Positions 6,996 to 58,246 of a stretch of 64,000 nt of DNA are shown in pieces (the stretch's first letter is position 1; the number at the start of each line of letters is the position of its first letter). The stretch comes from Tannerellaceae bacterium (GTDB lineage Bacteria; Bacteroidota; Bacteroidia; Bacteroidales; Tannerellaceae). Made by a program: the position numbers and the translations under genes. The stretch is from positions 14,116 through 78,115 of the forward strand of contig JAIRPK010000056.1 in NCBI GenBank assembly GCA_031257015.1. Direction: 5' to 3'. Below the pieces are notes generated by a model. It worked only from the letters and a program-made list of their open reading frames with translations, made no database searches and had not been told where the DNA came from.

Positions 6996-7121
6996 GAGTT
7001 TGATTCTCGGAGTGTCTCGTTTGATTCTCGGAGAATCAACGGTGATTCTCGGAGTGTCACGTTTGATGTTCGGAAGGTCATGCGAGATACTCCGGGGGGC
7101 ACGCTTGGGGGGTGGGACGTT
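6996..7121. repeat. 21-bp tandem repeat, 3 near-identical plus about 3 decayed units
   Basis: TGATTCTCGGAG at 7001, 7022 and 7043, with decayed copies in register at 7064, 7085 and 7106. Confidence 0.85.
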
Positions 7122-7223
7122 TCGGTTGAAGCCTGGAGATTTTTTGGAATATAATATGTAATCTCTTGCTTTTTTGTTTCTGCTGCATAAGTTTTCCAGA
7201 GCATTTTATTCAAGAATTATGTT

Positions 7224-7850
7224 TTAGGCCGGGTGTTGGGCGGCTAATACCAATTCGTTGATGCGGGTGATGACTTCGCGGACACTGGCGGAATCGACGG
7301 GAAGGTTCTCGATAAAGCTGCGTTTGAAGGAGAAGCCGAAATTGTAGCCGCCGCTGGTTTGAATCGTTATAAAGAAGCTTTTGTTGAAGCGGTACAGCGC
7401 CAGGCTTATTGTGCCGAGAAGTAGCAGGAAAACTCCCTGGGCGGGATTGGATGTGAGCATGATAATTCCGATGAATCCAAGCAGAATGGAGAGGAATATC
7501 CAACCGATTGGATTGTTGGCTCCGCATGATGTGGATGAGATTTTTTGCACTGGCGTGAGGGTGAGATGCTCGCCTGATGCACTGTTGGCGGAATAGTAGA
7601 TGCTGTCCTTTTTTACCAGTAGGCGATAGTAGTTGCCCAGTTTGAGTTTGGCTAATATCCATTGGATTAGTCCGGTTTTCCGGCCTTCGATTATGATGCG
7701 GTCGTCTCCGTCGGGCATGATTTGGAGTTTGCTTAGAGCCAGATGGACAGTGTTGCGGTTAAACAGGGATTTGATTACATAGATGGCGATAGCAAGGATG
7801 ATTATTCCGTATATGGCGGCGCTGCTATCTGAAGGTGAATTGTTAAACAT
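7224..7850 (-). CDS. Hypothetical membrane protein
   Basis: 208-aa ORF with an N-terminal hydrophobic segment and a central hydrophobic hairpin; no family recognised. Confidence 0.75.
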   Translation of the reverse strand: MFNNSPSDSSAAIYGIIILAIAIYVIKSLFNRNTVHLALSKLQIMPDGDDRIIIEGRKTGLIQWILAKLKLGNYYRLLVKKDSIYYSANSASGEHLTLTPVQKISSTSCGANNPIGWIFLSILLGFIGIIMLTSNPAQGVFLLLLGTISLALYRFNKSFFITIQTSGGYNFGFSFKRSFIENLPVDSASVREVITRINELVLAAQHPA

Positions 7851-8061
7851 GATACGTTGAATTTTAATTGTTTTTTTTTCTGCAAATGAATTTGTTCCTG
7901 CTCTTTCTTTAGTGTCGCGTGCTTCGGCTTTATTTACGACTTTTTTTATCTGTCAGGTTGGAAAGGGTATTGTTCTTCCTGCATATTTGTTGTGTCTTGT
8001 TTAAAATGGAATATCGCGAGGATAATCCGGAATTATGTCTCCTTAATCGTACTGTCAGAAA

Positions 8062-8204
8062 AAAACGGACGATTAAATTGACAATGATGCAAATATATAG
8101 ATAAAAACGAAGGAGGGGATTTTATCCTTTATTTTTAAGGCTTTGCAACCGTTTCAATTTTCTAGCCACCCGACCAAAATATTGTCAATTTAATCGTCCG
8201 TTTT
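8062..8204. repeat. Perfect 24-bp inverted repeat pair enclosing a 95-bp segment with a promoter box (candidate invertible promoter or MITE)
   Basis: AAAACGGACGATTAAATTGACAAT (8062-8085) is the exact reverse complement of ATTGTCAATTTAATCGTCCGTTTT (8181-8204). A minus-strand TATATTTG lies at 8090-8097. Confidence 0.9.
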
Positions 8205-8317
8205 CCCTGCCAGGGACAGTAAGAAAGACGCTTCCAATTAGCTTTAATTAAAATTCAATCCGTGTCAGTTTAAGCCGGAGTGTTCATGCGCAATTTTTAC
8301 TGCGAATGGGATAAACT

Positions 8318-8354
8318 CGCCCGACGCAGGATTATTTTATCCTGTGCCGGGGCG
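8318..8354 (-). terminator. Probable intrinsic terminator after meaB
   Basis: GC-rich imperfect hairpin (CGCCC..CAGGAT / ATCCTG..GGGCG) about 17 nt past the meaB stop, with a short T run. Confidence 0.5.
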
Positions 8355-8370
8355 GGTATGAGGAAACATT

Positions 8371-9462
8371 TTATTTAATGGTGGAGAGAAAGATGTCGAT
8401 TAGGCGCTTGGCTGCCACGAAGGAGCTGACGCGATTATCGAGCATCTGCCGTTCCGCGTTTTTTAGCTCGGCGGCGACGGAGGGGTTGTTGTAAAAAGAA
8501 TTGCGGAGAGCGTCGTGGATGCTTTCGTACATCCAGTATTTGGATTGCTCGCTGCGTTTGCGGAAGAAGCTGTTGTTTTGCTTCGTAAAAGAGATATAGT
8601 CATCAATCATTTTCCAAATTTCGTCGATGCCTAGCTTGTAGTAGCCGGAGTAGGTGAGGACAATGGGCTTCCATCCGGATTCGGGGGCGGGAAACAGGTG
8701 CAGGGCGTTGCGGAATTGCGAGGCTGCCATTCTCGCCTTTTCAATATTGTCACCGTCAGCTTTGTTGATGACTATTCCGTCGGCCATTTCCATTATTCCT
8801 CGTTTGATGCCTTGGAGTTCGTCTCCTGTACCTGCCAGTTGGATGAGGAGGAAGAAGTCAACCATGGAGTGGACTGCTGTTTCGCTTTGGCCTACTCCTA
8901 CTGTCTCGACGAAGATTGTATCGAAGCCGGCGGCCTCGCATAGAACAATAGTCTCACGAGTCTTGCGGGCAACGCCGCCCAATGAACCGGCAGAGGGTGA
9001 AGGGCGAATGAAGGCGTTCTTTGCTCTGGCAAGTTCTTCCATGCGGGTTTTGTCGCCAAGTATGCTGCCCTTGGTGCGTTCGCTGCTTGGATCGATGGCT
9101 AGAACGGCAAGCTTGCTGCCCTGATTGATGCGATACATGCCGAGGGCGTCAATGGATGTGCTTTTTCCTGCTCCGGGAACGCCGGTGATGCCAACGCGAA
9201 TGGAGCGGCCTGCATGGGGAAGGCAACGTTCAACTATTTCCTGGGCGATTTGCTGATGCTCGGCCTTTGAACTTTCTACAAGGGTTACGGCTTGGCTTAA
9301 CAGCGCGATATTGCCGTTCAGGATGCCTTCAGTATATTCAGCCGACGTGTATTCGCGCCTTGGTTGGCGCTTAACAAGATATGGGCTGACGGATGGTGCG
9401 CTGTGAACGCCCCGATTCACTTTGAGGCCTTTATATTGTTCATCGTTTTCGGGATGTATCAT
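8371..9462 (-). CDS. meaB: Methylmalonyl-CoA mutase-associated GTPase MeaB/ArgK
   Basis: GITGVPGAGKST, AIDPSS, ETVGVGQSE, DELQGIKRGIMEMAD and NKAD motifs. Confidence 0.95.
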   Translation of the reverse strand: MIHPENDEQYKGLKVNRGVHSAPSVSPYLVKRQPRREYTSAEYTEGILNGNIALLSQAVTLVESSKAEHQQIAQEIVERCLPHAGRSIRVGITGVPGAGKSTSIDALGMYRINQGSKLAVLAIDPSSERTKGSILGDKTRMEELARAKNAFIRPSPSAGSLGGVARKTRETIVLCEAAGFDTIFVETVGVGQSETAVHSMVDFFLLIQLAGTGDELQGIKRGIMEMADGIVINKADGDNIEKARMAASQFRNALHLFPAPESGWKPIVLTYSGYYKLGIDEIWKMIDDYISFTKQNNSFFRKRSEQSKYWMYESIHDALRNSFYNNPSVAAELKNAERQMLDNRVSSFVAAKRLIDIFLSTIK

Positions 9463-10598
9463 TTTTCGACGGTTACTTTGATGAGTTTAACTGGCTCATC
9501 GGGGAAGTTGGAGACGACGTATATATCGTCTGAAATTTCGGAGGTTATGTTTTTGGGGCGGATGCTGATTTTGTATTCAGCTGATGAACCGGGGGAAATT
9601 TCTCTCTTGTTTCCGGAAATCTCTACCAGCGGATTGTCGCAGGATATGCTGTATATAAGTAGTGCAGCCGTGCCACTATTAGTTATTTTCAGGGGGAGGG
9701 TGGATTTTTTTCCTGATTTGGACGGAGAGCCGGAACGTTGGTCGGAAATACGTCCGAAGCTTATGTGGGATGAGGAATATTGTGGCTGGGGCTTTTGCGT
9801 TCTGCCGGGAAGAGATAAGCGGGCATAGTTGTCAAGAATATTGGTACGGATGAGAATTAGGCTTTCAACCACTGTTCGTTTCTTGGCACTGTCGCTCTCC
9901 GCCAACAACGGGAAGCTTATCGAGGCACGACCGAGCTGGCCAATCTCGTCGGTACGCATGGAGAGAGTGATTTCTCCGTTTGCTCCGGGCAGGATTGTCG
10001 AGGGGGCGAGGTTGACGGAAAGGCCGGCGGGGAGTTTGCCGGTGCGGAGCTTGATGGGCGACAGTCCATCGTTCATGAATCGGATTGTGTCGCGGATGGT
10101 ATCGCCGGGGTAGGCGCTGGAGTGGGCTATGGTCATAGATTCTAGCTTGAGGCAGCCCAGGGAGTAGGGATAGACGAGGATGGGAAGAGCAGGCTCGTCG
10201 GGTTTCGGGGTGACGTTGCCCTTAATATATAATGTAAGCGGGCTGTTCCCTGCATTGGATGTTATCGACAGACTTTTGCGGAAGGGGCCGAGGCGCCCTT
10301 TGGAGTGATAGTTAATTTTTATCTCCGCTGTCGCTCCCGGCTCGACGGGAGTCTTCGGCCATTCGGGGCGGGCACATCCGCAGGAGGCGTAAATGTTGTT
10401 TATCAACAGCGGGGCTGTGCCTGTGTTTCTGATGGAGAACGTATGCGCGGCGCCTTCTTCTGATTCGGCTATTGTCCCGAAGTCGTATAATAACAAGTCC
10501 GCACTTATTTCGGCTGTTTTCCGGGTTTGCCCCTGGAGGGTTGCTATCGAAATAAGTGCGGACAAGATGAATGCCGCGATTGGCTGCATTTTTATCAT
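9459..10598 (-). CDS. DUF1573 multi-domain Ig-like protein
   Basis: DFGTI..F.I.NTG..PL.I..I.ASCGC..P.W pattern, repeated; upstream of meaB as in other Bacteroidales. Confidence 0.85.
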   Translation of the reverse strand: MIKMQPIAAFILSALISIATLQGQTRKTAEISADLLLYDFGTIAESEEGAAHTFSIRNTGTAPLLINNIYASCGCARPEWPKTPVEPGATAEIKINYHSKGRLGPFRKSLSITSNAGNSPLTLYIKGNVTPKPDEPALPILVYPYSLGCLKLESMTIAHSSAYPGDTIRDTIRFMNDGLSPIKLRTGKLPAGLSVNLAPSTILPGANGEITLSMRTDEIGQLGRASISFPLLAESDSAKKRTVVESLILIRTNILDNYARLSLPGRTQKPQPQYSSSHISFGRISDQRSGSPSKSGKKSTLPLKITNSGTAALLIYSISCDNPLVEISGNKREISPGSSAEYKISIRPKNITSEISDDIYVVSNFPDEPVKLIKVTVEK

Positions 10599-10613
10599 GC
10601 GGTTAGCCGTTTT

Positions 10614-11027: not shown

Positions 11028-11472
11028 TCTGTATTAATTGTTAATTTGTTAATGCTGCAAAGGTAATGATTTTGCAGGGAACTCCTATAATAATATTGCG
11101 CCGTTTGCCTCCGGAGCGAAATGGACTTTTGTGAACTTAATCATGATGGGCTTCTGCGGCGTTTCCTTCTGATGTTCTGCTGTTTTTGACGACTGTTGCG
11201 CCGGATTCTTCTTCAGGCAAAAGAGGTGGAAGCGTTTGGTGTCGGGTTGCTCTGTCCTCCGGCTTGATGAAATCGTCTCTATGCCTGATGCTTTTCTTGC
11301 CGGGAGAGGGAATATGGGTGCACAGAGGATTGTGGAGCAGAGGTGGAGCGCAGAGGCGAGGCGCGACAATGAGCTTTTCCTTTATGTAAGCGGGAGGGCG
11401 TAATGCTTCATTTTTGCGCAAAATTCAGCTGATTAGAGCTATACGGGAAGTAAAATGGTTATTTTTTGACTT

Positions 11473-11758
11473 TAAAATACTTATTTTACTGATTGTTTTA
11501 AGTTATAGTAAATGATATAGCTTAGTTTTATTGGTTGAATGAAACTATATTAATTGTTGTATATTCTTTTAATTGATTGAATATGCTTATACTAATTTTC
11601 ATGTCTTCATTTAAATTATAAAATGATACTGTGTATATTATAAAATACTTATTTAATCAATTTAATCTTCATATATGTAATAACTTATACTTGTTTAATT
11701 GGTTGAATAATATTTTATATAATGAAATATATTCATTCAACTGCAGGAATATGATTAT
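11473..11758. repeat. Decayed AT-rich duplication with exact 168-bp offset and an internal 42-bp motif phase
   Basis: TAAAATACTTATTT at 11473/11641, TTGGTTGAAT at 11531/11699, TATATTC at 11560/11728 and GAATATG at 11579/11747, each offset by 168. Confidence 0.7.
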
Positions 11759-12729: not shown

Positions 12730-12730
12730 C

Positions 12731-13900
12731 ATGAAAGATACAGATGAAAAGCACTGGCCGATGTTGCTTTCTGTCGTCATCGTTACTTATAATGTTAAGC
12801 TTTTTCTTGAACAATGTCTGACTTCAGTCCAATGGGCTATATGGGGAATTGAGGCGGAGGTGATCGTCATCGACAATAATTCGGAGGACGGTTCAGAGGA
12901 GTATATCCGCCAGCGTTTCCCTTTCGTGCATTATGTTTTTAATGCGGAAAACCGAGGGTTTGCATCTGCAAATAATCAGGCTTTCCGAATGTGCACGGGG
13001 AAGTATATATTGATGCTTAATCCGGATACTGTTCTTGGCGAAAACGTTTTGAAGGATGTCGTTAACTTTATGGAGATGCACCCTGAGGCCGGAGCGGCGG
13101 GTGTTAAGATGCTTGATGCTCACGGGCAGTTTCTTCCGGAAAGCAAGCGGGGATTTCCTACACCGTGGGCTTCGTTTTGCAAACTGTTTGGACTGGCGAC
13201 ATTGTTTCCGGGATTGCGACTGTTTGCGAAGTATAATTTGTTGTACCTAAGTAAGAATGAAGTTCACGAGGTTGATGTTCTTGCGGGGGCGTTCATGTTT
13301 ATGCGGAGGGAGGCGCTGGCGAAGGCGGGGCAGCTGGACGAATCGTTCTTCATGTACGGCGAGGATATTGACTTGTCTTACCGCCTGAAGAAGGCGGGGT
13401 ATGTCAATTATTATCTGCCTTATCCTATTCTTCATTACAAAGGGGAAAGCAGCAAGCAGGGAACGGCGGCTTACATACAAAACTTTTACGGTGCGATGCT
13501 GCTTTTCTTCAATAAATATTATCCCAATTCGAGTTCGCTGATTCGCCGGCTAATCGGAATGGCCATCAAAATAAAAACCAAACAGGCCGAACGGAAGCTT
13601 ATGCACCGGAAAGCATTGCCCAAGCGAAGAAAACCCAGGTTGTTTCTGCTAATCTGCTTGAGGAGCGAAATTCCTCTGCTGAAGAAAATTTGTCAAAATC
13701 GCTTCGGCGACATTGAGAGGTTTGACTATGCTTTCAACGAAAACGTCAAGGAACAGATTGGGGAATATACCGACATTGTGTTCGCCTTCCCCAGCTTTGA
13801 CTTTAACAAGCTAATGGAATACATGAACGTCGGAGTCAAGGGCTTTACTTTTCACATATATAACTCATACAGCGAGCAATTAATCTCACCAAGCAAATAA
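12731..13900 (+). CDS. Glycosyltransferase family 2
   Basis: SVVIVTYN, VIDNNSED, GFASANN, LNPDT and FMYGEDID motifs. Confidence 0.92.
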   Translation: MKDTDEKHWPMLLSVVIVTYNVKLFLEQCLTSVQWAIWGIEAEVIVIDNNSEDGSEEYIRQRFPFVHYVFNAENRGFASANNQAFRMCTGKYILMLNPDTVLGENVLKDVVNFMEMHPEAGAAGVKMLDAHGQFLPESKRGFPTPWASFCKLFGLATLFPGLRLFAKYNLLYLSKNEVHEVDVLAGAFMFMRREALAKAGQLDESFFMYGEDIDLSYRLKKAGYVNYYLPYPILHYKGESSKQGTAAYIQNFYGAMLLFFNKYYPNSSSLIRRLIGMAIKIKTKQAERKLMHRKALPKRRKPRLFLLICLRSEIPLLKKICQNRFGDIERFDYAFNENVKEQIGEYTDIVFAFPSFDFNKLMEYMNVGVKGFTFHIYNSYSEQLISPSK

Positions 13901-19565: not shown

Positions 19566-19965
19566 TGCAAATTGTTCTTGTTCAAAACAGGAAGCTTTTG
19601 CATCATTACAAATCGCTCCTGTTCAAAACATGAGGCGTTTGCATCGTTGCAAATCGTTCATGTTCAAAACAGGAGGCGTTTGCATCGTTGCAAATCGCTC
19701 TTGTTCAAAACATGGAGCGTTTGCATCGTTGCAAATCGCTCTTGTTCAAAACAGGAGGCGTTTGCATAGTTGCAAATCGTTCATGTTCAAAACATGGAGC
19801 TTTTGCATCGTTGCAAATCGTTCATGTTCAAAACATGGAGCTTTTGCATCGTTGCAAATTGTCCATGTTCAAAACAGGAAGCTTTTGCATCGTTGCAAAT
19901 TGTTCCTGTTCAAAACAGGAGGCGTTTGCATAGTTGCAAATTGCTCCTGTTCAAAACAGGGGCTT
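19566..19965. repeat. 41-bp palindromic tandem array, 10 units (last partial)
   Basis: Units start at 19566, 19607 ... 19935. Consensus TGCAAATCGYTCHTGTTCAAAACAKGRRGCKTTTGCATCGT; no unique spacers. Confidence 0.95.
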
Positions 19966-34157: not shown

Positions 34158-34515
34158 ATAAATTAATTTGTTAAAGAGAATATGCAAAGTTAAGAAAATC
34201 CACTAAATGAAATGATTTTTGTCAAAACCGAAAATCCTATAAGCCCTCAATTATTATTCCTTTGCAAAGGCTACTTTTTAGCGCACAGAATTTTAATCTC
34301 ACCCACCCAGCAAAACCATCCTGATTTTGCAAAACTCTCAATTATCCATCCTAAATTCGCTTAAAGAAAGAACTGTCACTACGGAAATGTCTAATACCCT
34401 CATGGAAAAGCGAACTGCCTCCCTGGCCAATCTCCCAAATCCAGTATCAAAAGCCCAAACCAGCATTGGGAAGCCTTTATCCCTCTTTTTCAATCACGAT
34501 TTCATCGCAGAAAAA

Positions 34516-34830
34516 CCTGAAGTTTCCGCGGAAAAATCCAAAATTTCCATGGGAATGTCTGAAATTTCCACGAAAAAATTCAAAATTCCCGCGGAGATTC
34601 CCAAAATCCCCATGGAAAAATCGGAGATTTCCACGGAGATTCCTGAAATTCCCGTGGAAAAATCCAAAATCTCCGCGGGGACGACTGAAATTTCCGCGGG
34701 GAAATTCAAAATTCCCACGGAAATGGTTGAATATGATGCGGGGATAGTTGAAATATTTGTGAGGATGGTTAAAATTACCACTGAGATTGCCGAAATATTT
34801 ATGTGGATGGGCAAAATATTCAAGAGCAAG
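34516..34830. repeat. Degenerate 21-bp tandem array (10 conserved plus about 5 decayed units)
   Basis: Units such as CCTGAAGTTTCCGCGGAAAAA, TCCAAAATTTCCATGGGAATG and ACTGAAATTTCCGCGGGGAAA in strict 21-bp register from 34516. Confidence 0.88.
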
Positions 34831-35022
34831 GCCTAAATCGCCGCGAGGAAGTCCTGTGTTTCCGTGAAAATGGTCGAACTATCTATGTTGGCACCCGAAT
34901 ATAAAGTTTTCGGATAGAATGTGGAATTGCAGAAGCGATGGCGTTTTTCCCGGCGCAGGAATAGTGGTTTCGTGGGATGTTGAACAGTAGCGGAGATGCC
35001 AAAGGCGGCATATATTAATGAG

Positions 35023-35068
35023 AAAAGAGAGGCGCGGGCGGGGTTCCCACTTTCGCGCTTCTCTTTTT
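35023..35068 (-). terminator. Intrinsic terminator of the oxidoreductase-DUF1097 operon
   Basis: AAAAGAGAGGCGCG / CGCGCTTCTCTTTT inverted repeat with a minus-strand T tail. Confidence 0.7.
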
Positions 35069-44387: not shown

Positions 44388-44626
44388 GGGATAAAAACGG
44401 GCGCATCATACTGTTCTTATCTTTTCCCTGAAGCCTCTATTGCATAAACAGGCCATGTTTAACAATGCTTTCCTGCGCCATGATACTGCTGAAACCGACT
44501 GTTAACCAGAGTTATTCCGGGCGGGGGCGATTAGTTTCGCGCATGTTTTTTTTCTTGTTCCAGAACAGGTATAATTCATTTTGCTTGAAGCTATGAGTTC
44601 CATTTTTAAGCTTTCATGTATGCCAT

Positions 44627-45098
44627 GACATCTTCCGAAGATGTCTTGACATGTGGCGAACGTCTCTAAACATGTAATGAACGTCTTTAAAGACGTGACG
44701 AACGTCTCTAGACATGTAAAGAACGTCTTTAAAGACGTAACGAACGTCTCTAGACCTGTAATGAACGTCTTTAATGACGTGATGAACGTCTCTAGACATG
44801 TAATGAACGTCTTTAAAGACGTGACGAACGTCTCTAGACATGTAATGAACGTCTTTAAAGACGTGGCGAACGTCTCTAGACATGTAATGAACGTCTTTAA
44901 AGACGTAACGAACGTCTCTAGACATGTAATGAACGTCTTTAAAGACGTAATGAACGTCTCTAAAGACGTGGCGAACGTCTCTAGACATGTAATGAACGTC
45001 TTTAAAGCCGTAACGAACGTCTCTAGACATGTGGCGAACGTCTTTAAAGACGTGACGAACGTCTCTAGACATGTAATGAACGTCTTTAAAAAAGTTCG
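44627..45098. repeat. 21-bp tandem array, 21 units, mostly alternating A/B (42-bp higher order), palindromic
   Basis: GAACGTC every 21 bp from 44658 to 45078. A = GAACGTCTCTAGACATGTAAT, B = GAACGTCTTTAAAGACGTGAC. Confidence 0.97.
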
Positions 45099-45196: not shown

Positions 45197-45233
45197 AAAA
45201 AAACAGAGACGCGCCGTTCGTTGCGCGTCTCTA
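45197..45233 (-). terminator. Intrinsic terminator of pilin unit 1
   Basis: Minus strand AGAGACGCGC-N8-GCGCGTCTCT followed by GTTTTTTT. Confidence 0.85.
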
Positions 45234-46961: not shown

Positions 46962-48518
46962 TTACTTTAGGTCAACAGTAACTGTCTCCCACGGCAATAT
47001 CAGTATGGTTGCGCTTGCATGTGTCGAGCTTTGAGCAACCGTCGGGATTTCGTCAAGTTCGTCAGGCCTGGAGAATCCCAGTTTAGTGAACTCCGTTATC
47101 CTTCCAAGATATTGTTTGTTGCGCAGCAAGCCTCCGTCGGTATTGTCGGAGATGTTGAAGCGATAGTAGCAGACGCCGTTAGTATAGGTATCAATTTTTA
47201 GTTTCTCAGGAGTATAGCCGGCTGTCCACAATGCAGGGCTACCGGAATGTTCAAGCATGCAGGCAATCAGTGTTGCATCGTCCTGTTTGGCAAAAACCAG
47301 TCCTTCGATGTCGGAATATGAGCCGAGAGAGGAGTAATTCACGCCGGATGAGGCTAACGATGCAGGATTAATGCGGTAGAATGTTGCGGGGGCAGTTGTC
47401 GTGCCTTTCTCAATCGAGGTAATACTCTGGACAACTCCGTCTTCCTCGTCGTAAGCAATCGACTTGACCAGATTATTGGCTGCCGGGATGAATGAAGCCT
47501 TTGCTGCAATGTAGGTGCTGTTACCCATGGTTCCGAACACATTCTCCGGGACATAATAGTATCTCTCCTCATCGCCTTCGGCGTTCACCGTAAGGTTTAT
47601 CTCCACGCCCGTCTGGTCGCCCGTCCACCAGTATGGCTTATAGATCGTAACATTAGTGAGGTCGAGGCCTGCCAGGACGTTGTAGAGAGGTGAGCGAACC
47701 TTTCCGTCTGCTCCTGTTTCCTTAAACAGAGCTACTGCCCGGTTCTGGTTCCTTACGCCCCAGAATAGATTGCTCAGACCTCCACTCAGAGATTCTGCAT
47801 TAATGTTCATCGAGGCGGCTACATTATTGACGGTAACTTTCGCAACAACTCTCTGCACTGGGATTGTGAAATGATTCTTCGACGCATCGGCTGTTTCGCT
47901 CTGGGATTCCTCCAGCGAGATGTCCGGCAGAACCGTAAAGATGCTCGACGACGTTGCCTGCGAATTGCAAAAGACCATTTTGGGTGTCACAATGCTGGAA
48001 TAGTTTAACGCTGTAAGTGCTGCGGGCGGCGTCCCTGCCAGTAGAGGCGTTCCGAAATCAATCTCATGCAGGAAGAGTTTGTTTCCGCTTGTCTCCGTCT
48101 TTGTCCCAATCAAATCCGTTAACGCTCGTCCTACTTGTCCTGATAGAAATGAGTTCACGCCTGGTTCGTTAGCAATCACGAAGATGCGCTTTGCTCCTGG
48201 GCTGACTTTTAGCGATGACGTCCTTGTGGAAGTAGTCGTAAGATTTGTATCAATCTCACAGATGCCGGAATTATCCCCTGCGTGAGCGTAAATCAGCAAG
48301 CGGATTTTTGCAATATCGCTCGTCTCGTTCTCGTCACTCGTAAGAGGAGCCTTGGTTTCTCCCTCAATGTTGACGTCAAGCGTCATATAGGTGGCATCAC
48401 TTGTCGGTTCAGGAGTTTCTTCCTCAATAGAAACGGGAGTTTCCTTAACCGAACAACTCGATAGAAAAGCAGCAGCTACGGCTGCAAACAAAAAAGAAAG
48501 CAGATTTTTTTTCATCAT
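46962..48518 (-). CDS. Type V pilus Mfa1/FimA-like pilin, paralog 2
   Basis: LSSC, ETKAPL, KRIFVIAN, VQRVVAKV, YYRFNI..LLRNKQY and ILPWETVTVDLK. Confidence 0.85.
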   Translation of the reverse strand: MMKKNLLSFLFAAVAAAFLSSCSVKETPVSIEEETPEPTSDATYMTLDVNIEGETKAPLTSDENETSDIAKIRLLIYAHAGDNSGICEIDTNLTTTSTRTSSLKVSPGAKRIFVIANEPGVNSFLSGQVGRALTDLIGTKTETSGNKLFLHEIDFGTPLLAGTPPAALTALNYSSIVTPKMVFCNSQATSSSIFTVLPDISLEESQSETADASKNHFTIPVQRVVAKVTVNNVAASMNINAESLSGGLSNLFWGVRNQNRAVALFKETGADGKVRSPLYNVLAGLDLTNVTIYKPYWWTGDQTGVEINLTVNAEGDEERYYYVPENVFGTMGNSTYIAAKASFIPAANNLVKSIAYDEEDGVVQSITSIEKGTTTAPATFYRINPASLASSGVNYSSLGSYSDIEGLVFAKQDDATLIACMLEHSGSPALWTAGYTPEKLKIDTYTNGVCYYRFNISDNTDGGLLRNKQYLGRITEFTKLGFSRPDELDEIPTVAQSSTHASATILILPWETVTVDLK

Positions 48519-48699: not shown

Positions 48700-50238
48700 T
48701 CATTTTAAGTCCAGTACCAGCGTATCCCAGGACATAATCTGCACCCCGGACGCTCCCTGTCTCCCACCGATAGACATCGGCTTAATCTCGTCAAGCAGTT
48801 CTATCCGTGCAGCTCCCACTCCTCCAAAGGAGGTAATCTTCCCTCGATACTGTTTATTGCGCAGCAGCCCTCCGTCGGCATTGTTCGATATGTCAAAGCG
48901 ATAGTATGAAATGCCGTTCTCGTGCGTTTCAATCTTCAGCCTCACCGGTTCATAGCCTGCAGGATAAGACGAAATGTCGCCGTCATGCTCAAGGAAATAG
49001 GCAACGCGCCTTGCTTCCTCGATATTCGTAAACGGCTGCCCGACGGCAATCAAATTATTGAGCCGGAAAAGATCAATCGTTATAGCGGATGCTTCCTCCG
49101 TTTCTGGCGAAGCATTATAATTAATGGTATAGTAAGTCTGATGTGCAGGAAGCCTTAGCGTCTCAACGTCCGAAACTGTCCCCTTGTCTTCGTTAAAAAA
49201 AACTCTGTCAATGCAGTATGCCGGTTTGAAATTCGCCTTGACCACAATATAGGTACTGTTCCCCGTGCTGCCATAAACATTCTCCGGGACATAATAATAA
49301 TTCGCCACTGATGCTCCCAGATCCATTGGGATGTTCACATCCTCGCCTGCCACATCGCCCGTCCACCAGTACGGTTTATAGTCCGAAATATCTGAAGGCC
49401 ACGACAAGTCGAAGAACGGCGGACTCACCCTGCCTCCTTCGACAGTCTTGCGGAATAGCGCTACTGCCCTGTTCTGATTCCTTACACCCCAGTAGAGGTC
49501 ATCATAATCTCCGCTGATATAATCGTTCTCCGTATAATTCAAGTTCGCAGCACAGAAAACCGTCACCTTCGCCACAGCCCTTTGCATACTAATCCTGAAA
49601 TGATTCTTCAACGAATCCCCCGGACTGTTCAGCGTTTCCTCCTGCGACACATTCGGAAGCACTGTGCGAATGCTCGCCGAATCCGCTTGCGAATTACTAA
49701 AGACCATATAAGGTTTAACAAGGTCAGAATAGTCCACCGACGTAAGCGGCTCAATAAGCTCTGAGCTGCTAAGAGCTGGCGTTCCGAAATCAATCTCATG
49801 CAAGAACAAATGACCACCCCTTGCGGGATTTTTGTCAATAATCATCTCCCTCAGGCTATGCCCCTTCTGGTTCGGGATGCGCCAGGACTTGTCGTGCTCG
49901 TTGGCAATAACGAAAATGCGCTTCTCTCCTGGACTGACCGGGATAGCCACAGAAGCGGTCATATATGTGGTGTCCACTTCGCAAACACCATCATTCCCGG
50001 TTGTATGCTCATATATCATCATGCGTGTGCTAAGGAGCGATTCAGACTCGTCAGCGTCGCTCGTCATCGAAGTCTTGGAAGTTCCTGCAACGGAGAAGCT
50101 GAACGTAGCGTAGGTAACATCCTTCGCAGACACATCTCCTTCTCCCGCCCATCCAACGAGAGTTTCCTTCACCGTACAACTTGACAAAACCGCAACTGCA
50201 ACGGTAGCCTTAAGCAAATAGGTTAGATAGAATTTCAT
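48700..50238 (-). CDS. Type V pilus Mfa1/FimA-like pilin, paralog 1
   Basis: LSSC, TSKTSM, KRIFVIAN, MQRAVAKV, YYRFDI..LLRNKQY and IMSWDTLVLDLK. Confidence 0.85.
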   Translation of the reverse strand: MKFYLTYLLKATVAVAVLSSCTVKETLVGWAGEGDVSAKDVTYATFSFSVAGTSKTSMTSDADESESLLSTRMMIYEHTTGNDGVCEVDTTYMTASVAIPVSPGEKRIFVIANEHDKSWRIPNQKGHSLREMIIDKNPARGGHLFLHEIDFGTPALSSSELIEPLTSVDYSDLVKPYMVFSNSQADSASIRTVLPNVSQEETLNSPGDSLKNHFRISMQRAVAKVTVFCAANLNYTENDYISGDYDDLYWGVRNQNRAVALFRKTVEGGRVSPPFFDLSWPSDISDYKPYWWTGDVAGEDVNIPMDLGASVANYYYVPENVYGSTGNSTYIVVKANFKPAYCIDRVFFNEDKGTVSDVETLRLPAHQTYYTINYNASPETEEASAITIDLFRLNNLIAVGQPFTNIEEARRVAYFLEHDGDISSYPAGYEPVRLKIETHENGISYYRFDISNNADGGLLRNKQYRGKITSFGGVGAARIELLDEIKPMSIGGRQGASGVQIMSWDTLVLDLK

Positions 50239-53747: not shown

Positions 53748-53757
53748 GATATAAAAG

Positions 53758-54780: not shown

Positions 54781-54817
54781 AGTAGCATTAAAATGATAAA
54801 GAATAACAGGTTGTCCA

Positions 54818-54850
54818 TAAATAGCCTCTTGAAATTCAAGAGGCTATTTA
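54818..54850. terminator. Terminator hairpin after rlmN; insertion landmark of the intron
   Basis: Perfect inverted repeat TAAATAGCCTCTTGAA-A-TTCAAGAGGCTATTTA. Confidence 0.85.
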
Positions 54851-54856
54851 GTTTAA

Positions 54857-55691
54857 CTGCGCAAGCATGCCAACCCACTTGCTGGTTCAAGTCCAATACG
54901 GAGGTCGGTAGTTACCAACCGTTGGCCCAAAGCAAGGGTGTCCGTAGCGATGCGGAATCTGAAGGAAGCCGGCGGCAAAGTCCTGAACTGAGAACACGAA
55001 CGACATAAGACATGTTCCGCCGGACGAGTTTGCTTAACAGAACGAAGTCCAATAACTACCCGGAGGCGGTGGATGTAAATGTCGCAGTTACATGGGATGT
55101 AGCTGAAAAGTTGTCTTACCTTGGGAGGTCTCACGGACGTGCATAAGGCATATCCAGAAGCTCAGAGTAAAGCTTGCCGGGAGAAGTCAGCAGAAGCAAT
55201 AGTAATACGGACACAAGCCCGCGGAGCGAAAGAAAGCATGAAACGGGACTCTTACAAAGTATGAAGGGCTGAAACTTATCAAAAGGAGAAGATAATGAAG
55301 CTACCTTATGCAGGGAAGAAAGCAGAAAATATAGAAAGATAGCTACCGTCAGAAGGTCAGGTCGGAAACCAGCAGATATGACGAAGCGCATACTTGCGTT
55401 GGGAGTGACTGAAAACACCCTCATGGAAGTGCATTTTACGGAAGAACATCTGTGTTGGGGCGCATACTTGCGCCGTCGAACCTTAATCTTGCATACAGGC
55501 AAGTGAAACGCTACAGAGGAACGTATGGCGTGGACAAAATGGATACGGATGCCTTGCTGCCGTATCTTCTTGAGCATAAGGAAAGCCTGGCAGCATCTCT
55601 TTATTCAGGGACATACCGTCCCAATCCTGTTCGTCAAGTAGAGATACTCATTCAGCAGGCAATCAATCAGGTATTATCGCCCATATATGAA
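54857..55691 (+). mobile_element. Decayed, 3'-truncated class IIC group II intron with RT/maturase pseudogene
   Basis: Starts 6 nt after a terminator hairpin, the IIC target preference. The ORF remnant from the ATG at 55308 reads MQGRKQKI*KDSY..., with frameshifts, then ILAPSNLNLAYRQVK..GVDKM..YRPNPVRQVEI and LIQQAINQVLSPIYE. The LGIP..DR segment is missing and no domain V/VI was seen. Confidence 0.88.
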
Positions 55692-56137
55692 ATGGGTGCG
55701 TCCATGATTATCAAACAAGTCTCCGATAATTGAATCCGCATACGGATTGTAGTCGCCAATGAACGTATTCGGCAGTACGACTTTCCAAACCTCCCCCTGA
55801 TCGCGTTCACAGCCCGTGATTCGTTCCTAACCTTTTATCTCAACACGCTCCCCCCGGCGCGGCGCGATAAATAATCCGCCCGGCATCGTTCTCGCCTCCG
55901 CGCGGAGGATTAATCCATTCCCTGTAAACTCCGGCATGAACGGTAATAACGTCTCCGGCGTATGCTACGTTTGCCGCACAGGCTGATTGTTCTGAAAGGT
56001 GCGCTTCCCGAACCGCTTACACTGTCATTTCCCTTGACGGGAACATGATCTCCCCCGGCTCCGGCAGCCATGGACAATAAGGCCGCCATACTGCTTGTCA
56101 ACACTGTTCTTTTGATTGTTCGTGCAATTGATTTCAT
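55692..56137 (-). pseudogene. Truncated pseudogene of an exported DUF1565/right-handed beta-helix protein
   Basis: Hand translation gives KGNDSVSGSGSAPFRTIS, a frameshift, AGDVITVHAGVYREWINPPRGG..RIIYRAAPGERVEIKG*E..VWKVVLPNTFIGDYNPY..IGDLFDNHGRTH, then it breaks off at the intron remnant. Confidence 0.75.
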
Positions 56138-56261
56138 CCTGTCGCATAAAGTGATTTGTTTATGGCTCCCGATTCTCTGCCTTCAATTTCCGGAATCCTT
56201 TATTTTATGGTTTAGAATATAAAGTGTGGTTGATGGTTAAATTCTCATTCCGATTGCCCTC

Positions 56262-57740
56262 TCAATTCCCTGTTAAAAATGTTTGCGCTGCATAATCGTA
56301 CAGGGCGACGCTGCGGATGTTGAAATAGTATGTCCAATACTTGTGCATCTCGGCGATGAGCTTGATCTTGGCCTCGTCTTTTGAGCGGCGTGCATCGTTG
56401 AGGTCGAGCACGTTTATGTTTCCGGTCATGAACGTTTCGATGGAAGCGGCGTAGCGCCTGGAGGCAATGCGGTCGGCCTGCATGGCAATGTCCAGCTGCG
56501 CGGCCTGGTTGTTGAAGTTTTCGACGAGGAGGAAGATGCTGGCGTCAAAGGTCATCTGTTCCTGCCTGGCCTGTGCGATGAGCGCCTCGCGGTTGGATTC
56601 GGCAACGCGCACCTTGCCCTTGCGCTTGCCCCAGTCGAGGATGGGGATGCTGAGGCCGATCTCGACGATTTGGTTTCCGCTCAGGCGGTTGTAGGCTGCG
56701 GAGGGAAGGGGATCCTTTCCGGTATACCCGACGGAAGCGTAAAGGTCAACGCTTCGCTGTTCGCCTTTGGCAGCGGCAACGGAATAGTCCGCCTCGATCT
56801 GCCGCCGGAGGATGTTTTTGGAGAATGAGTTGTTGCTGACGGCCTTGTCAAGGACGTCGCGATAGTCTATGCGAAGCGATGGAACTGCGGCGGGCGCGAG
56901 CGGTTCTATCGTGATGCTGTCGGCGATGCCGAGGAAGGAGCCGAGGCGGAACCGAGCGGCGTTGAGCGTCGATTGAGCTTCAGTGACCGTCCCACGTGCC
57001 TGGAGGGCATTAAGTTCCAGTTGCATCAGCTCGCTTTCGGAGATGTAGCCAAGCCGTCGTTTCTCGGCAGCTATGTAGTGCAGCCGATTGGCATTGTCGC
57101 TGTTCAGCAGGGCTATGTCGAGATTCTCGCGTGACTGAAGGAGGTTGAAGAAAAGCGAAAGGGCTGCAAGGGCGACCTCCTCCATGTTTTCGGCAAATGT
57201 TGACTGTGCCTCACGATATTTCAGCGGCTCGATTCGGCGTTTCCATTTCTGATGATTGGTTCCGAAGACCGGCTGGACGAGGGTCAGGCTCAATGGTATG
57301 CTCATGTATTCGTTCCTTGACCCGATGCCGAGCTGGCGCGTGAAGTCGAGCGACGAGGCGAGGGTTATCTTTCCTCCGGTGAGTGCAATGTTCTGTTCGA
57401 CAGACATTCGTCCGCTCAGTCCGAGCCGGTTTTCATGCGCGTAAGTGTATGTGCCGTCTGATTGTCGATAGAGGCTGTAACGGTTGCTGTACGCCGGCAA
57501 TGTTCCGTTGAAGCTGATTTCCGGCAGCTGGTCGGCCTTGTGTGTCCGATGCTCCCAGTAAGCCGTTTTCAGTCGGTTGACCGCTACGGCTGCATCTGCC
57601 GATTGTGATTTTGCCAGGCGTATGGTTTCGTCCAGCGACAGTTTCAGGGTATCTTCCTGCGCCAAGACGGGCATGTCGATGAATAGAAGGAGAGCGGCGG
57701 CAGCCCGGAGGACAGACCTGTATGTATATGATGATTTCAT
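56262..57740 (-). CDS. TolC-family outer membrane efflux protein
   Basis: Signal peptide, LSLDETIRLA, LPEISF, QPVFG and LSIPILDWG repeats; 492 aa. Confidence 0.92.
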   Translation of the reverse strand: MKSSYTYRSVLRAAAALLLFIDMPVLAQEDTLKLSLDETIRLAKSQSADAAVAVNRLKTAYWEHRTHKADQLPEISFNGTLPAYSNRYSLYRQSDGTYTYAHENRLGLSGRMSVEQNIALTGGKITLASSLDFTRQLGIGSRNEYMSIPLSLTLVQPVFGTNHQKWKRRIEPLKYREAQSTFAENMEEVALAALSLFFNLLQSRENLDIALLNSDNANRLHYIAAEKRRLGYISESELMQLELNALQARGTVTEAQSTLNAARFRLGSFLGIADSITIEPLAPAAVPSLRIDYRDVLDKAVSNNSFSKNILRRQIEADYSVAAAKGEQRSVDLYASVGYTGKDPLPSAAYNRLSGNQIVEIGLSIPILDWGKRKGKVRVAESNREALIAQARQEQMTFDASIFLLVENFNNQAAQLDIAMQADRIASRRYAASIETFMTGNINVLDLNDARRSKDEAKIKLIAEMHKYWTYYFNIRSVALYDYAAQTFLTGN

Positions 57741-57943
57741 GATTCACGAATTGTTTTCGGTTCTCTGTTTTTAGTTTTCAGTTATTCGTAACGGGTTGAG
57801 GATGGAGATGACGGAATGGAGATGCCTCCGCTTTGCTCCAAATCGGGATGCGGGAATTGAAAATAAATAATGATGCTTCGCGCCTGCTTAACGGTGAATC
57901 AATCGGCTTCATGCTCTGCTTCCCGCTCTTTATTTTCAATCCA

Positions 57944-58246
57944 TCCGGAATCCCGAAAGTATTTTTCCTTGCGTCGGGAAGAATTTCCGGAATCCCGAAA
58001 GTATTTTTCCTGACGTCGGGAAGCTTTTCTGAATCCCGAAAGTATTTTTCCTGATGTCGGGAAGCTTTTCTGAACCCCGAAAGTATTTTTCCTGACGTCG
58101 GAAAGCTTTTCTGAACCCCGAAAGTATTTTTCCTGACGTCGGGAAGCTTTTCTGAATCCCGAAAGCTTTTTTCCTGACGTCGGGAAGCTTTTCTGAACCC
58201 CGAAAGCTTCCCGACGCCGGTAAAAATACTTTCGGGGTTTCGGAAA
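57944..58246. repeat. 41-bp tandem array (6 units plus a partial one) ending in an inverted unit
   Basis: CCCGAAAG at 57952, 57994, 58035, 58076, 58117, 58158 and 58199. Unit CTGAAYCCCGAAAGTATTTTTCCTGACGTCGGGAAGCTTTT; 58201-58246 is a reverse-complement unit. Confidence 0.95.

Follow-up and report, generated by a model that had tools for sequence, protein, structure and literature searches.

Six intergenic tandem-repeat arrays as probable members of several mutually unrelated dispersed families in a termite-gut Bacteroidales genome

How can six tandem arrays with unrelated units share nearly the same repeat step within one stretch of DNA? A preliminary description of the window (the whole 64-kb stretch analyzed here) proposed either amplification of local sequence at a fixed step or selection for helically phased platforms that bind dimeric proteins. 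Based on the results below, we conclude that the six arrays (A1–A6) are probably members of several mutually unrelated dispersed repeat families of a termite-gut Bacteroidales genome (Tannerellaceae/Dysgonomonadaceae-like).

Tandem repeats were located with TRF, and a lag autocorrelation of the whole window served as the second method. Together they confirmed all six arrays at the places described (Table 1). TRF found A1, A3, A4, A5 and A6 and did not report A2 at period 42. The unbiased scan (lags 7–109) gave A1–A6 as the only tandem-periodic regions of the window, with periods of 21, 41 or 42 in six of six, and one further, marginal match at lag 66 inside a gene. All the arrays are intergenic, as had been stated, each falling between ORFs; the neighboring genes are both on the minus strand for five arrays and form a divergent pair for A2. 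The units were said to be unalignable, and indeed blastn-short of the six arrays, flanks included, against one another gave no cross-match at E<0.05, while 33 unit consensi shared no more k-mers than shuffles did. Independent Logan assemblies from three to four runs enter every array and accumulate on its units, which means that the arrays are not assembly artefacts.

Table 1. Arrays and transcription-terminator-like features in the window.
Feature	Position	Strand	Description
A1	6998..7081	.	four 21-bp units (GTTTGATTCTCGGAGTGTCAC); TRF 6998-7074, 21 bp x3.7; lags 21/42
A2	11446..11739	.	decayed, AT-rich, period 42, higher order 84/168
A3	19566..19960	.	41 bp x9.6, 89% match (TRF)
A4	34432..34900	.	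21/42-bp array; lags 21/42/63
A5	44611..45093	.	TRF core 44653-45085, 42 bp x10.3, 90%
A6	57948..58251	.	six direct 41-bp units, dyad TTCCTGACGTCGGGAA; TRF 57948-58206, 41 x6.3, 93%
Bidirectional intrinsic-terminator-like hairpin	35023..35067	.	inverted repeat, AAAAGAGAGGCGCG...CGCGCTTCTCTTTT
Canonical intrinsic terminator	45197..45232	-	stem AGAGACGCGC/GCGCGTCTCT, then U7; read from sequence

Of the four A1 units in the window, just one contains the complete 19-bp palindrome, TTGATTCTC-G-GAGAATCAA. A2 carries the recurring motif ATTGRTTGAAT, with a lag-scan identity of 0.55–0.57 at lags 42/84/168 (z=6.7 at lag 42), and is flanked by two divergent promoters, that of a DUF1573 gene (-) and that of recR (+), with -7 boxes around it at 11065(-) and 11943(+). 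The unit of A3, found between the 3′ end of a histidine kinase gene (20067) and the start of aspS (19347), is a near-palindrome with two dyad centers (TTTGCA-TCGT-TGCAAA and TGTT-CAA-AACA). A4 is located upstream of the gene for a C10 peptidase that carries a T9SS sorting domain, and its core (34516–34725; TRF 21/42/63, about 70%) has a unit of approximately TTTCCGCGGAAAAATCCAAAA. In A5, 21-bp subunits of two kinds alternate to give the 42-bp unit; their dyads are ACGTCT-CTAG-ACAT and ACGTCTTTAAAGACGT, with invariant arms and a variable spacer. This array lies mid-way among five tandem Mfa1/fimbrillin paralogues (Pfam/NCBIfam). A6, the only array inside an operon (macB/tolC-type efflux), lies between FtsX (58264–59544) and OEP (56262–57740). 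Its end cap (58203–58251) is one inverted unit, which pairs with 57979–58027 as a 49-nt inverted repeat, 88% complementary; the array at locus L011 also has an inverted cap unit. Decayed edges, reported earlier for most arrays, were seen in register at A4 (both sides), A5 (one decayed unit at 44611–44652) and A1.

The cause of the repetition acts on DNA and not on protein, in keeping with the DNA/RNA-level cause argued for earlier, since 41, 22 and 23 bp are not divisible by three, unit variation follows no codon-phase pattern and stops occur in most frames. It is hardly credible that the 21/42-bp arrays encode heptad-repeat proteins or that the arrays arose in assembly. A length of 21 bp does equal seven codons, long ORFs run across A4 and A5, and there are weak coiled-coil-type Pfam matches below the cut-off. 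However, these ORFs begin at the edge of the array, with several frames open, the unit variation has no third-position excess, and the 41-, 22- and 23-bp arrays cannot stay in frame; as for an artefact, the same kind of arrays is present in independent assemblies and in other contigs.

All five families tested (A1, A3, A4, A5 and A6) recur elsewhere at same-genome depth and with different flanks. In the Logan data, unit k-mer depth was 2–170 times flank depth, these copy numbers being k-mer depths in metagenome unitigs, to which co-abundant relatives could contribute. The highest values belong to the A1 family, with a depth of up to 2230 versus 12–13 in the flanks (~170 times; 119 contigs); at its other loci, the spacing of 21–22 or 42–43 bp is kept while the spacer letters differ. 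A1 is a small cluster of this very abundant dispersed palindromic repeat. Depths reached 440–668 versus 15 for A3 units, with many other flanks, up to 1657 versus 16 for A5, also with other flanks, and up to 800 versus 20 for A6. In two samples, other long Logan contigs of matching depth end in 85–90% identical units and have different flanks; A4 units at this identity are present on at least four other long contigs of matching depth, and units ~85% identical to those of A6 stand at the ends of further long contigs. The A3 family (37/41 consensus identity) also makes up a 41/82-bp array in the MAG contig JAIRPX010000341.1, at a non-syntenic locus with unrelated flanks. No conserved leader or tail was found in the flanks of A3 and locus L002, which are unrelated, or at the loose contig ends of the A3, A5 and A6 families, which differ.

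Because the units of these five families are found at other loci, they are not amplified local sequence. The origin suggested earlier, in which each site's own sequence is multiplied at a fixed step by hairpin-primed slippage, rolling-circle or RT-type amplification, agrees with the unrelated units of different arrays and with edges that decay in register. Moreover, template switching at hairpins gives palindromes that are perfect through the center, as established for quasi-palindrome correction, and such palindromes are present here. We nevertheless regard this origin as improbable and largely refuted, given that 5/5 tested unit types occur at other loci, A3 also in another MAG. No RT, HUH, primase-polymerase or NAP gene, all proposed as partners, was found in the window, where the group II intron signal is limited to one fragment with no ORF, 3 kb away from A6.

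The repeat step was analyzed in 1.40 Mb comprising the window and relatives. When non-coding arrays with periods of 18 bp or more were counted once each, 28 of 29 had periods of 20–24, 41 or 42 bp (binomial P ~2e-29 versus a uniform distribution over 18–100), which supports a shared quantized period far beyond chance. Other periods are detectable, since arrays inside long ORFs also have 12, 15, 27 and 51 bp, to which the lag scan adds 54 and 99 bp. The step of ~21–24 or 41–42 bp thus reaches beyond the window genome into relatives. Peaks had been expected at 20–21 and 41–42; the periods fell at 20–24 and 41–42, and the modal period in relatives is 22. The claim of strict helical phasing was too strong: one relative has 23–24-bp arrays and no arrays of 31–32 or 52–53 bp were found in the 1.40 Mb, and both the 23–24-bp periods and the absence of 31–32-bp arrays speak against it.

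Five of the six units had been credited with a dyad core. This holds in part, as the full A1 dyad is rare within its own array and A2 has no significant dyad versus shuffles, but 10 of 25 unit consensi have dyads at p<=0.05 versus shuffles (~60% of units have no significant dyad). Dyad symmetry is therefore enriched and not universal. The half-site geometries include AGGAAAC-N4-GTTTCC, TTTGCA-N4-TGCAAA, CTGCAA-N5/6-TTGCAG and ACGTCT-N2/4-AGACGT.

The comparison of orthologous loci proposed earlier revealed both empty sites and copy-number alleles, and it should be noted that filled and empty sites, alleles and arm conservation all come from relatives and not from the window organism. In the close relative L088, the A6 site in the syntenic operon is an 87-bp spacer with no array, and six 23/24-bp arrays are located at other sites; in L088, blocks of TACATGCACATGTA... 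give way to blocks of GGCATGTACATGCC... without loss of register, the arms changing symmetrically. Two unrelated 42-bp arrays lie side by side in L003, the nearest relative by TypA. In human-gut relatives, some contigs have no array at the site upstream of ahcY, and in others three unrelated 21–22-bp arrays occupy it, one of which has whole-unit alleles of 4, 2 and 1 units in contigs that are 97–99% identical. Between orthologous arrays, the dyad arms are conserved at 50/52 positions (96%) versus 21/36 (58%) for center plus spacer, about 92% for adjacent coding DNA and 46–77% for flanks. Arms that are more conserved than coding DNA point to selection or biased conversion.

Based on these results, we consider it probable (about 0.6) that the arrays are non-coding, DNA-level minisatellites of several unrelated dispersed palindromic families, which become established in spacers and turn over by slippage and recombination. 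In most arrays, the unit has two conserved dyad arms of ~6–8 bp, with centers about one helical turn apart, and a variable center and spacer. A few units would settle in the sole tolerant DNA, namely the stretch from the terminator of one gene to the promoter of the next. Subsequently, the array would grow or shrink by whole units through replication slippage or unequal recombination, be homogenized blockwise and decay at its edges. The step of 21–24 bp (mode 22), or 41–42 for doublet units, would be a trait of such repeats across Bacteroidales. It may be set by the geometry of a dyad recognizer, with the footprint of a single dimer, or a single hairpin and its linker, for every ~two turns, and then inherited, as unit-wise recombination would keep the period while the sequence turns over; exact helical phasing probably does not underlie it. 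The route of units to new sites, the recognizer and the reason for the value of the period are parts of the pathway that we infer. Simple period inheritance does not account for doublets at 41–42 instead of 44–46, or for arms outdoing coding DNA in conservation.

The arm conservation also keeps alive the idea of dimeric-protein platforms, which overlaps with the explanation above. Each unit would then be an operator-like inverted repeat, with dimers ~two turns apart on one face of the DNA, serving upstream of promoters as insulators, nucleoid-organizing or regulatory sites. The half-site geometry of the dyads (e.g., TTTGCA-N4-TGCAAA), arms that are invariant within arrays and conserved between species, the spacer length kept at A1-family loci despite different letters, the threefold independent filling of the ahcY-upstream site, and array ends ~150–350 bp ahead of the start or -7 box of the downstream gene are all consistent with such a role. 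It is nonetheless rather unlikely: a large set of cognate proteins would be required for so many unrelated sequences (at least five in the window and about 30 in the sample), the arrays have no DNA-binding gene next to them, and ~60% of units have no significant dyad. In addition, close strains differ in unit number and related species have empty sites, and 23–24 bp is off-phase, with no 3- or 5-turn arrays. Multiplied sites of an invertase or Tsr-type site-specific recombinase are a much fainter possibility. A5, among its fimbrillin genes, holds AGACGTTCGT six times versus 0.43 expected, a sequence that would fit the Mpi inverted-repeat core ARACGTWCGT. Both A6 and L011 have inverted cap units. 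Tandem multiplication of such sites is reported beside an invertible promoter in B. fragilis, with multiple IR copies between promoter and operon (PMC4747536). However, there is no recombinase gene in the window and no promoter between inverted copies, arrays are also found upstream of housekeeping genes (aspS, the rpsL operon and ahcY), and "opposite strand" joints are expected from palindromic units anyway.

A role in RNA, with tandem hairpins as terminators/insulators, REP-like 3′-end stabilizers or type III antitoxin-like processed RNAs, is suggested by the strong folding of A3 (z -6.5/-6.1), A6 (+ strand, -4.1), A4 (- strand, -4.0) and A1 (+ strand, -3.2). Furthermore, in a cultured relative, the RNA depth of the upstream gene drops from 56–250 to 4–6 at the array edge; some copies of the BrickBuilt element of P. 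gingivalis are transcribed (PMC4596501). This role appears quite improbable all the same. Canonical terminators precede A4 and A5, and Bacteroidetes promoter -7 boxes also lie outside these two arrays: the bidirectional hairpin (Table 1) separates A4 from its upstream gene (35148–35663, -), and the terminator near A5 belongs to the upstream fimbrillin gene and stands between that gene and the array. The folding of A5 and A2 is no stronger than that of shuffles, internal stem positions of A3 and L002 lose pairing, the arms are conserved in sequence with no covariation, the arrays match no Rfam family, no toxN-like gene lies downstream, and no RNA run contains the window. Over the array of the cultured relative, RNA contigs have a depth of 4–6, versus 56–970 on the flanking genes.

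The preliminary interpretation is thus partly supported: the arrays are real, unrelated, quantized and formed at the DNA level, whereas local amplification, helical phasing and the view that no known family compares with them did not hold. The minisatellite families share several features with REP/BIME elements of Enterobacteria and Pseudomonas, which are associated with RAYT transposases: short imperfect palindromes whose stems are conserved and whose loops vary, many copies (A1 family), strictly extragenic location, regular clusters and the coexistence of several classes that a genome can have. Unlike them, the arrays have no evident GTAG/GTGG head motif; they are mostly direct with a fixed step of 21–24 or 41–42 bp, whereas BIMEs have alternating orientation and defined linkers, and canonical terminators precede A4 and A5, whereas REPs are usually transcribed in 3′ UTRs. 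MIRU and other bacterial VNTRs are likewise dispersed intergenic tandem families of tens of bp with whole-unit strain alleles. However, MIRU periods are about 46–101 bp, and MIRU lie in operons and carry small ORFs overlapping the flanking stop/start codons, in contrast to quantized arrays flanked by terminators/promoters with stops in most frames. Direct repeats of ~22/~43 bp, with a dyad in the ~43, are also found in iterons (22 bp, R6K or pPS10) and F sopC (12 x 43 bp with an inverted repeat), where dimers or monomers of one protein bind one DNA face. The arrays differ from these in their chromosomal housekeeping context with no nearby rep or par gene, in the many unrelated units in one replicon, in strain copy-number variation and in empty sites in some relatives.

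By layout and period, the closest known elements appear to be BrickBuilt and MITEPgRS of P. gingivalis, also of the order Bacteroidales. BrickBuilt has 23-nt units with dyad symmetry at 19 intergenic loci, differs in copy number between strains and is preceded by a terminator; MITEPgRS/MITE464 contains the 41-nt tandem "Repeat C", which is intergenic, dispersed and dyad-symmetric, and the genome of strain W83 is noted to have tandem repeats with lengths of 41, 23 and 22 nt (PMC4596501, PMC2575886). Common to these elements and the arrays are intergenic dispersal (about 10–20 loci per family in P. gingivalis), spacerless head-to-tail units, dyad symmetry, long predicted stem-loops, an upstream gene's terminator before the element and copy number that varies by strain. 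Like the families here, BrickBuilt and MITEPgRS have no common sequence, with periods of 23 and 41 nt. A search for IS5-type TIRs gave matches at chance level, and neither a mobilizing gene nor terminal inverted repeats, a leader or tail, or duplicated target sites were found; with no IS5-type TIRs and no conserved leader or tail detected, the arrays differ from the P. gingivalis elements. The periods of 21, 41 and 42 bp, the larger number of families per genome (at least five in 64 kb) and the density of ~3% of the window versus 0.44% of the P. gingivalis genome also set them apart. The neighboring genes are again of similar kinds, including aminoacyl-tRNA synthetase, C10 and M16 peptidase, efflux and T9SS cargo genes (PMC4596501, PMC2575886).

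Tandem Repeats Finder (TRF) recovered five of the six tandem arrays of the window (A1 and A3–A6), and A2, too decayed for this program, was evident from its identity at regular lags (see the table). An unbiased scan for lags of 7–109 across the 64 kb (240-bp windows, cut-off z > 5) found exactly A1–A6, every one at a lag of 21, 41 or 42, together with a single marginal lag-66 signal within a gene. When printed in register, the units abut without unique spacers, and homogeneous cores are accompanied by decayed, in-register edges in A4 (34432–34900), A5 (one unit, 44611–44652) and A1. The arrays and their flanks showed no similarity to each other (blastn-short, E < 0.05), and the 33 unit consensi from the window and its relatives shared no more 5- or 6-mers than did shuffles; GACAC, considered as a motif common to the families, was lost against the same control. 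The existence of six sequence-unrelated arrays at these places, asserted in the preliminary description, was therefore confirmed and extended. The claim of five dyad cores held in part: 10 of 25 unit consensi were more symmetric than 95% of shuffles (1.25 expected), so that dyad symmetry is enriched, not universal, while just a single unit out of the four in A1 has the complete palindrome and A2 lacks a significant dyad. In the window, the columns that do not vary within an array are those of the dyad arms. No solitary copies of the unit cores were found elsewhere in the window. At the end of A6, one inverted unit (58203–58251) caps the direct units, giving a 49-nt, 88% complementary hairpin or a pair of arms resembling terminal inverted repeats (TIRs). 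Likewise, a single inverted unit caps a direct-unit array in comparison locus L011 (~7060–7110), resulting in long hairpin- or TIR-like arms.

Coordinates of the arrays and associated features (A1–A6, fimbrillin genes and terminators in the window; L-numbers are comparison loci; depths are from Logan metagenome assemblies)
Feature	Location	Strand	Description
A1	6998–7074		TRF, 21 bp × 3.7; unit depth up to 2230, flank depth 12–13
A2	~11.45–11.74 kb		identity 0.55–0.57 at lags 42, 84 and 168
A3	19566–19960		TRF, 41 bp × 9.6, 89% match; unit depth 440–668, flank depth 15
A4 (core)	34516–34725		TRF, 21/42/63 bp; unit depth 30–68, flank depth 15.6
A5	44653–45085		TRF, 42 bp × 10.3, 90% match; unit depth up to 1657, flank depth 16
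A6	57948–58206		TRF, 41 bp × 6.3, 93% match; unit depth up to 800, flank depth 20
Mfa1/fimbrillin-family paralogues (five in tandem)	40962–42596, 42654–44270, 45340–46929, 46962–48518, 48700–50238	−	
Terminator	35023–35067		canonical hairpin and U-tract, between the upstream gene and A4
Terminator	45197–45232		canonical hairpin and U-tract, between the upstream gene and A5
L088 arrays	1320–1940, 6343–6496, 12880–13057		23–24 bp
ahcY-upstream arrays	L008 7017–7096, L013 6946–7030, L011 7013–7061		21–22 bp
ahcY-upstream array 1			22 bp, TTACTGCAAC..TTGCAGTA
ahcY-upstream array 2			22 bp, AGGAAAC-N4-GTTTCC
ahcY-upstream array 3			21 bp, TTCGACAACGTCGTGTATATA; inverted copy as cap, like A6
ahcY array with 4/2/1-unit alleles	L024 5264–5355; same site in L018, L028, L041, L057 and L022		22 bp

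The window is an ordinary Bacteroidales chromosome from a termite-gut metagenome. It carries rpsL/rpsG/fusA, recR, a uvrD-like gene, aspS, typA, a sigma-54 two-component pair, genes for M16 and M23 peptidases and for a C10 peptidase that bears a T9SS sorting domain, a macB/tolC-type efflux operon, a ppiD-like gene, rlmN and meaB. Its TypA shares no more than 90% identity with any other recorded sequence, the named relatives being Tannerellaceae MAGs and Parabacteroides. Genes for transposases, recombinases, reverse transcriptases, HUH enzymes and nucleoid proteins were absent from the 64 kb, including those kinds (RT, HUH and nucleoid-associated proteins) that the preliminary description had suggested looking for in array-rich genomes. 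All six arrays are intergenic; five lie between two minus-strand genes and A2 lies between divergent promoters, while A5 is placed exactly between the second and third of five fimbrillin paralogues. Bacteroidetes −7 boxes (TAnnTTTG) adjoin the downstream genes and are absent from every array; promoters within the units were rejected on this basis. Given the terminators preceding A4 and A5 and the −7 boxes outside the arrays, at least these two occupy the spacer from a terminator to the next promoter. The 3′ side of rlmN bears a match to group II intron domains D1–D4 (54941–55107, plus strand, 115 bits, E 6e-23), followed by a weaker fragment (55164–55269). No reverse-transcriptase ORF follows the match on the plus strand; the element is either an intron lacking an ORF or what remains of one.

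The periods were examined in 1.40 Mb in total, comprising 80 TypA-anchored metagenome loci and loci of the nearest relatives. Synteny at the TypA-anchored loci was gone even at 90% identity, and these loci therefore supplied an independent sample of periods. Once rows had been merged, orthologous duplicates dropped and arrays within long ORFs put aside, there remained 31 unique non-coding arrays of 2.5 copies or more. Their base periods were 11 bp (1 array), 14 bp (1), 21 bp (4), 22 bp (8), 23 bp (4), 24 bp (3), 41 bp (3), 42 bp (6) and 81 bp (1, tandem tRNA genes). Thus, among the 29 arrays whose period was 18 bp or more, 28 fell within {20–24, 41, 42} (binomial P ~2e-29 against a uniform distribution over 18–100). 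ORF-internal arrays also had periods of 12, 15, 27 and 51 bp, and the lag scan added 54 and 99 bp, so the method was able to see other periods. The period histogram suggested in the preliminary description thus gives a base step of 21–24 bp (mode 22) and a second class at 41–42 bp. No arrays occurred at 25–40 bp or at three or five helical turns, so that helical phasing is unlikely to be the only rule; the description of the arrays as helically phased in the preliminary description is too strong, since arrays of 23–24 bp exist and a 31–32-bp class is missing. The nearest TypA relative (L003, 90% identity) carries two abutting, unrelated 42-bp arrays with 84- and 126-bp higher orders (8974–9668), ~330 bp upstream of typA, where the window has no array. 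L088, a contig from the same sample as the window, contains the efflux operon in synteny; its six arrays have periods of 23 or 24 bp, and higher orders of 46 and 69 bp.

To follow the units outside the window, Logan unitigs of the metagenome runs holding this genome were mapped on each array, and unit and flank depths were compared. In many Logan contigs, units 85–90% identical to those of A1, A3, A4, A5 and A6 ran into different unique flanks. Several of these contigs were long (1.3–22 kb) and had depths matching the window genome (11–21 in sample X1 and 4–6 in sample X2); the multi-locus evidence consists of metagenome unitigs, not a closed genome. At other loci of the A1 family, the spacing of 21–22 or 42–43 bp was kept and the spacer letters differed. 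Among 185,579 species genomes, the A3 unit was found in one other array (41/82 bp × 8.4), in the Dysgonomonadaceae MAG contig JAIRPX010000341.1, where the unit consensus was identical at 37 of 41 positions and the flanks were unrelated. The units are dispersed families and not local sequence, so the amplification of local sequence suggested earlier does not account for A1, A3, A4, A5 or A6. An exact search of IMG/VR with the A3, A5 and A6 unit patterns gave no match, and a viral origin was rejected on this basis. One Logan contig in X2 (depth 8, just 21 nt on its shorter side) joins position 6950 to 7162, leaving out 211 bp including A1. It may represent a thinly supported empty-site allele.

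The search of orthologous loci for empty sites and unit-number alleles was fruitful in relatives. The site of A6 is empty in L088, with a spacer of 87 bp. Within an L088 array, TACATGCACATGTA-ACATACCGT units switch in register to GGCATGTACATGCC-AGACACCAT units; from the TACATGCACATGTA to the GGCATGTACATGCC core the arms change symmetrically, and the period, phase and ACACC spacer are kept. The spacer upstream of ahcY is essentially absent in three human-gut Parabacteroides-like contigs (L021, L016 and L066), where the stop codon of the upstream gene lies ~12 nt from the ahcY −7 box. In other lineages, this spacer is filled by three mutually unrelated arrays located before the conserved ahcY promoter. 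Array 1 has four, two or one units among contigs with flanks 97–99% identical; it is a ready-made VNTR, and the species is probably culturable. For array 2, two species share 50 of 52 arm positions and 21 of 36 positions of the centre and spacer, with flanks 77% and 46% identical and adjacent coding DNA ~92% identical.

The closest described elements, which the preliminary description had missed in naming no known family, are the minisatellite MITEs of P. gingivalis (PMC4596501, PMC2575886). BrickBuilt has dyad-symmetric 23-nt units in 1–23 copies at 19 intergenic loci, with a terminator before the element and a copy number changing from strain to strain, and MITEPgRS/MITE464 comprises up to 14 tandem 41-nt repeats (PMC4596501, PMC2575886). 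Both were classed as MITEs on the strength of their IS5-type TIRs together with a leader and a tail (PMC4596501, PMC2575886). The arrays studied here (21, 41 and 42 bp) are likewise intergenic head-to-tail repeats of the same two period classes, and metagenome unitigs place one unit family at many loci for A1, A3, A4, A5 and A6, as in BrickBuilt and MITEPgRS. As to the strain-to-strain variation of BrickBuilt, 4, 2 and 1 units were seen in a relative's array; the data for the window arrays themselves are short-read unitigs. Unlike the P. gingivalis elements, no conserved non-repeat leader or tail was found in the one full comparison (A3 against the flanks of L002, the other A3-family locus), and the loose-end consensi at other Logan loci of A3, A5 and A6 differed between loci. 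IS5-family TIRs (GAGACC..TTGCA / TGCAA..GGTCTC, one mismatch) gave two matches in the window against 1.9 expected, none paired around an array; an inverted-repeat scan of the window returned only unit-derived inverted copies. No target-site duplication was found. The window arrays work like the BrickBuilt/MITEPgRS kind and, as TIRs and leader/tail segments were not found, are at most candidate members of it.

REP/BIME and MIRU are looser analogues. As in REP/BIME, an abundant extragenic imperfect palindrome of 20–40 bp is present (for the A1 family, a depth of up to 2230 versus 12–13), its arms conserved like their stem and its centre or spacer variable like their loop; neither a Y1 transposase (RAYT) within the window nor a consistent GTAG/GTGG head in the units was found. 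MIRUs lie inside operons, with small ORFs over the stop and start codons of their neighbours, whereas A4 and A5 are bordered by terminators and −7 boxes, most frames are interrupted by stops and A6 alone is within an operon. Iterons and sopC have the same geometry as the window arrays and a different context: an iteron or centromere array adjoins its cognate rep or par gene at a replicon origin or partition locus, and the neighbours here are rpsL, recR, aspS, the C10 peptidase gene, fimbrillin genes and efflux genes. A CRISPR array is rejected because the units lack unique spacers and the window lacks cas genes, and a type III toxin–antitoxin system (toxI-like, ToxN/AbiQ) because the downstream genes encode AspS, a peptidase, a fimbrillin and an OEP. 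The same holds for a Bacteroidales inverton, as the inverted copies neither contain nor enclose a −7 box and the window has no recombinase gene. The A5 units contain AGACGTTCGT six times (44698–45064, minus strand), significantly more than the 0.43 expected, which fits ARACGTWCGT, presumably the core of the inverted repeats used by the Mpi invertase of B. fragilis. In L039, an array (19890–19954) contains AGACGTACGT.

That 41-bp arrays cannot be in-frame repeats was borne out, and the same applies to 22 and 23 bp; the variation of the 21-bp units in A4 and A5 showed no codon-phase pattern and stops occurred in most frames, so coding heptads were rejected. With Rfam 15, no array reached a gathering score, and only chance-level matches to hairpin families appeared at E ≤ 1; the intron fragment at 54941–55107 was the only real match in the window. 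Two-unit segments folded better than shuffles in A3 (z −6.5/−6.1), A6 (plus strand, −4.1), A4 (minus strand, −4.0) and A1 (plus strand, −3.2), and no better in A5 and A2. Hairpin covariation in the A3 family (A3 and L002) was rejected, as internal stem positions are frequently unpaired. No RNA runs containing the window were found. In a cultured relative with a 22-bp × 4 array, the RNA contig depth was 4–6 on the array against 56–970 on the flanking genes in two runs; in a third run, the array was spanned by an RNA contig of the upstream gene, and in a fourth no contig was present there.

Based on the above results, the arrays are most likely dispersed palindromic minisatellite families, and the interpretation in the preliminary description as a whole is partly supported. 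We suggest that a unit would comprise two conserved arms about one turn apart with a variable centre and spacer, and that units would establish in tolerated spacers. The arrays would then gain and lose whole units, homogenise in blocks and decay at their edges. The period would be inherited while the sequence drifts, because unit-wise recombination preserves it. From the conservation and constant spacing of the arms, we favour their recognition by a dimeric protein, whether one that binds or an enzyme that mobilises the units; TIRs, leader/tail segments, target duplications and a mobilising gene were not found at the arrays (window; A3 versus L002 flanks). Less probably, the arrays would be a purely functional platform, a view weakened by the number of mutually unrelated units, by alleles differing in copy number, by sites that are empty and by the 23–24-bp arrays, which are off phase.

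Arrays of dispersed palindromic minisatellites are a variant of an already known, poorly understood kind. To our knowledge, P. gingivalis is the one member of the Bacteroidales from which dispersed minisatellites have been described, one family at a time. Our data suggest that the latter are one instance of a wider rule, at least in Tannerellaceae/Dysgonomonadaceae-like genomes, including Parabacteroides-like contigs from the human gut: a step of ~21–24 or 41–42 bp is common to many unrelated families, the arms of the dyads change more slowly than coding sequence does, and the same terminator–promoter spacers are colonised repeatedly. What appears to be new is this generalisation, i.e., many unrelated families, one quantised step and arm conservation above the coding level. 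It is experimentally tractable in cultured Parabacteroides and offers a testable handle on the mechanism of recognition or mobilisation. A bolder and rather improbable proposal is that the step is set by a protein of Bacteroidales: an undescribed paralogous or structure-specific family, perhaps of mobilising enzymes or of proteins of the nucleoid type, would sit as dimers on the dyad units at intervals of about 21–22 bp, seeding, maintaining and symmetrising the arrays. If so, the period and dyad geometry would be conserved while the sequence turns over completely, as in a bacterial counterpart of satellite DNA with a protein-set period, and arrays placed before promoters, among them that of the highly expressed ahcY, could serve as insulators or organisers.

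In practical terms, the arrays explain why assemblies of these MAGs break repeatedly, and their whole-unit VNTRs can serve as markers to type strains of gut Bacteroidales. For this genome, short-read unitigs stop at arrays (L001 in A3; L006 53 bp past FtsX, at A6), which makes these repeats a systematic cause of MAG fragmentation in the clade. Short repeats of 7/14 bp (AATTGTCAACTGTC / TTGACAA), unrelated to the 21–22-bp arrays, were also observed in human-gut contigs near ahcY (L008 5362–5485, L039 ~7030–7060 and ~9 other loci).
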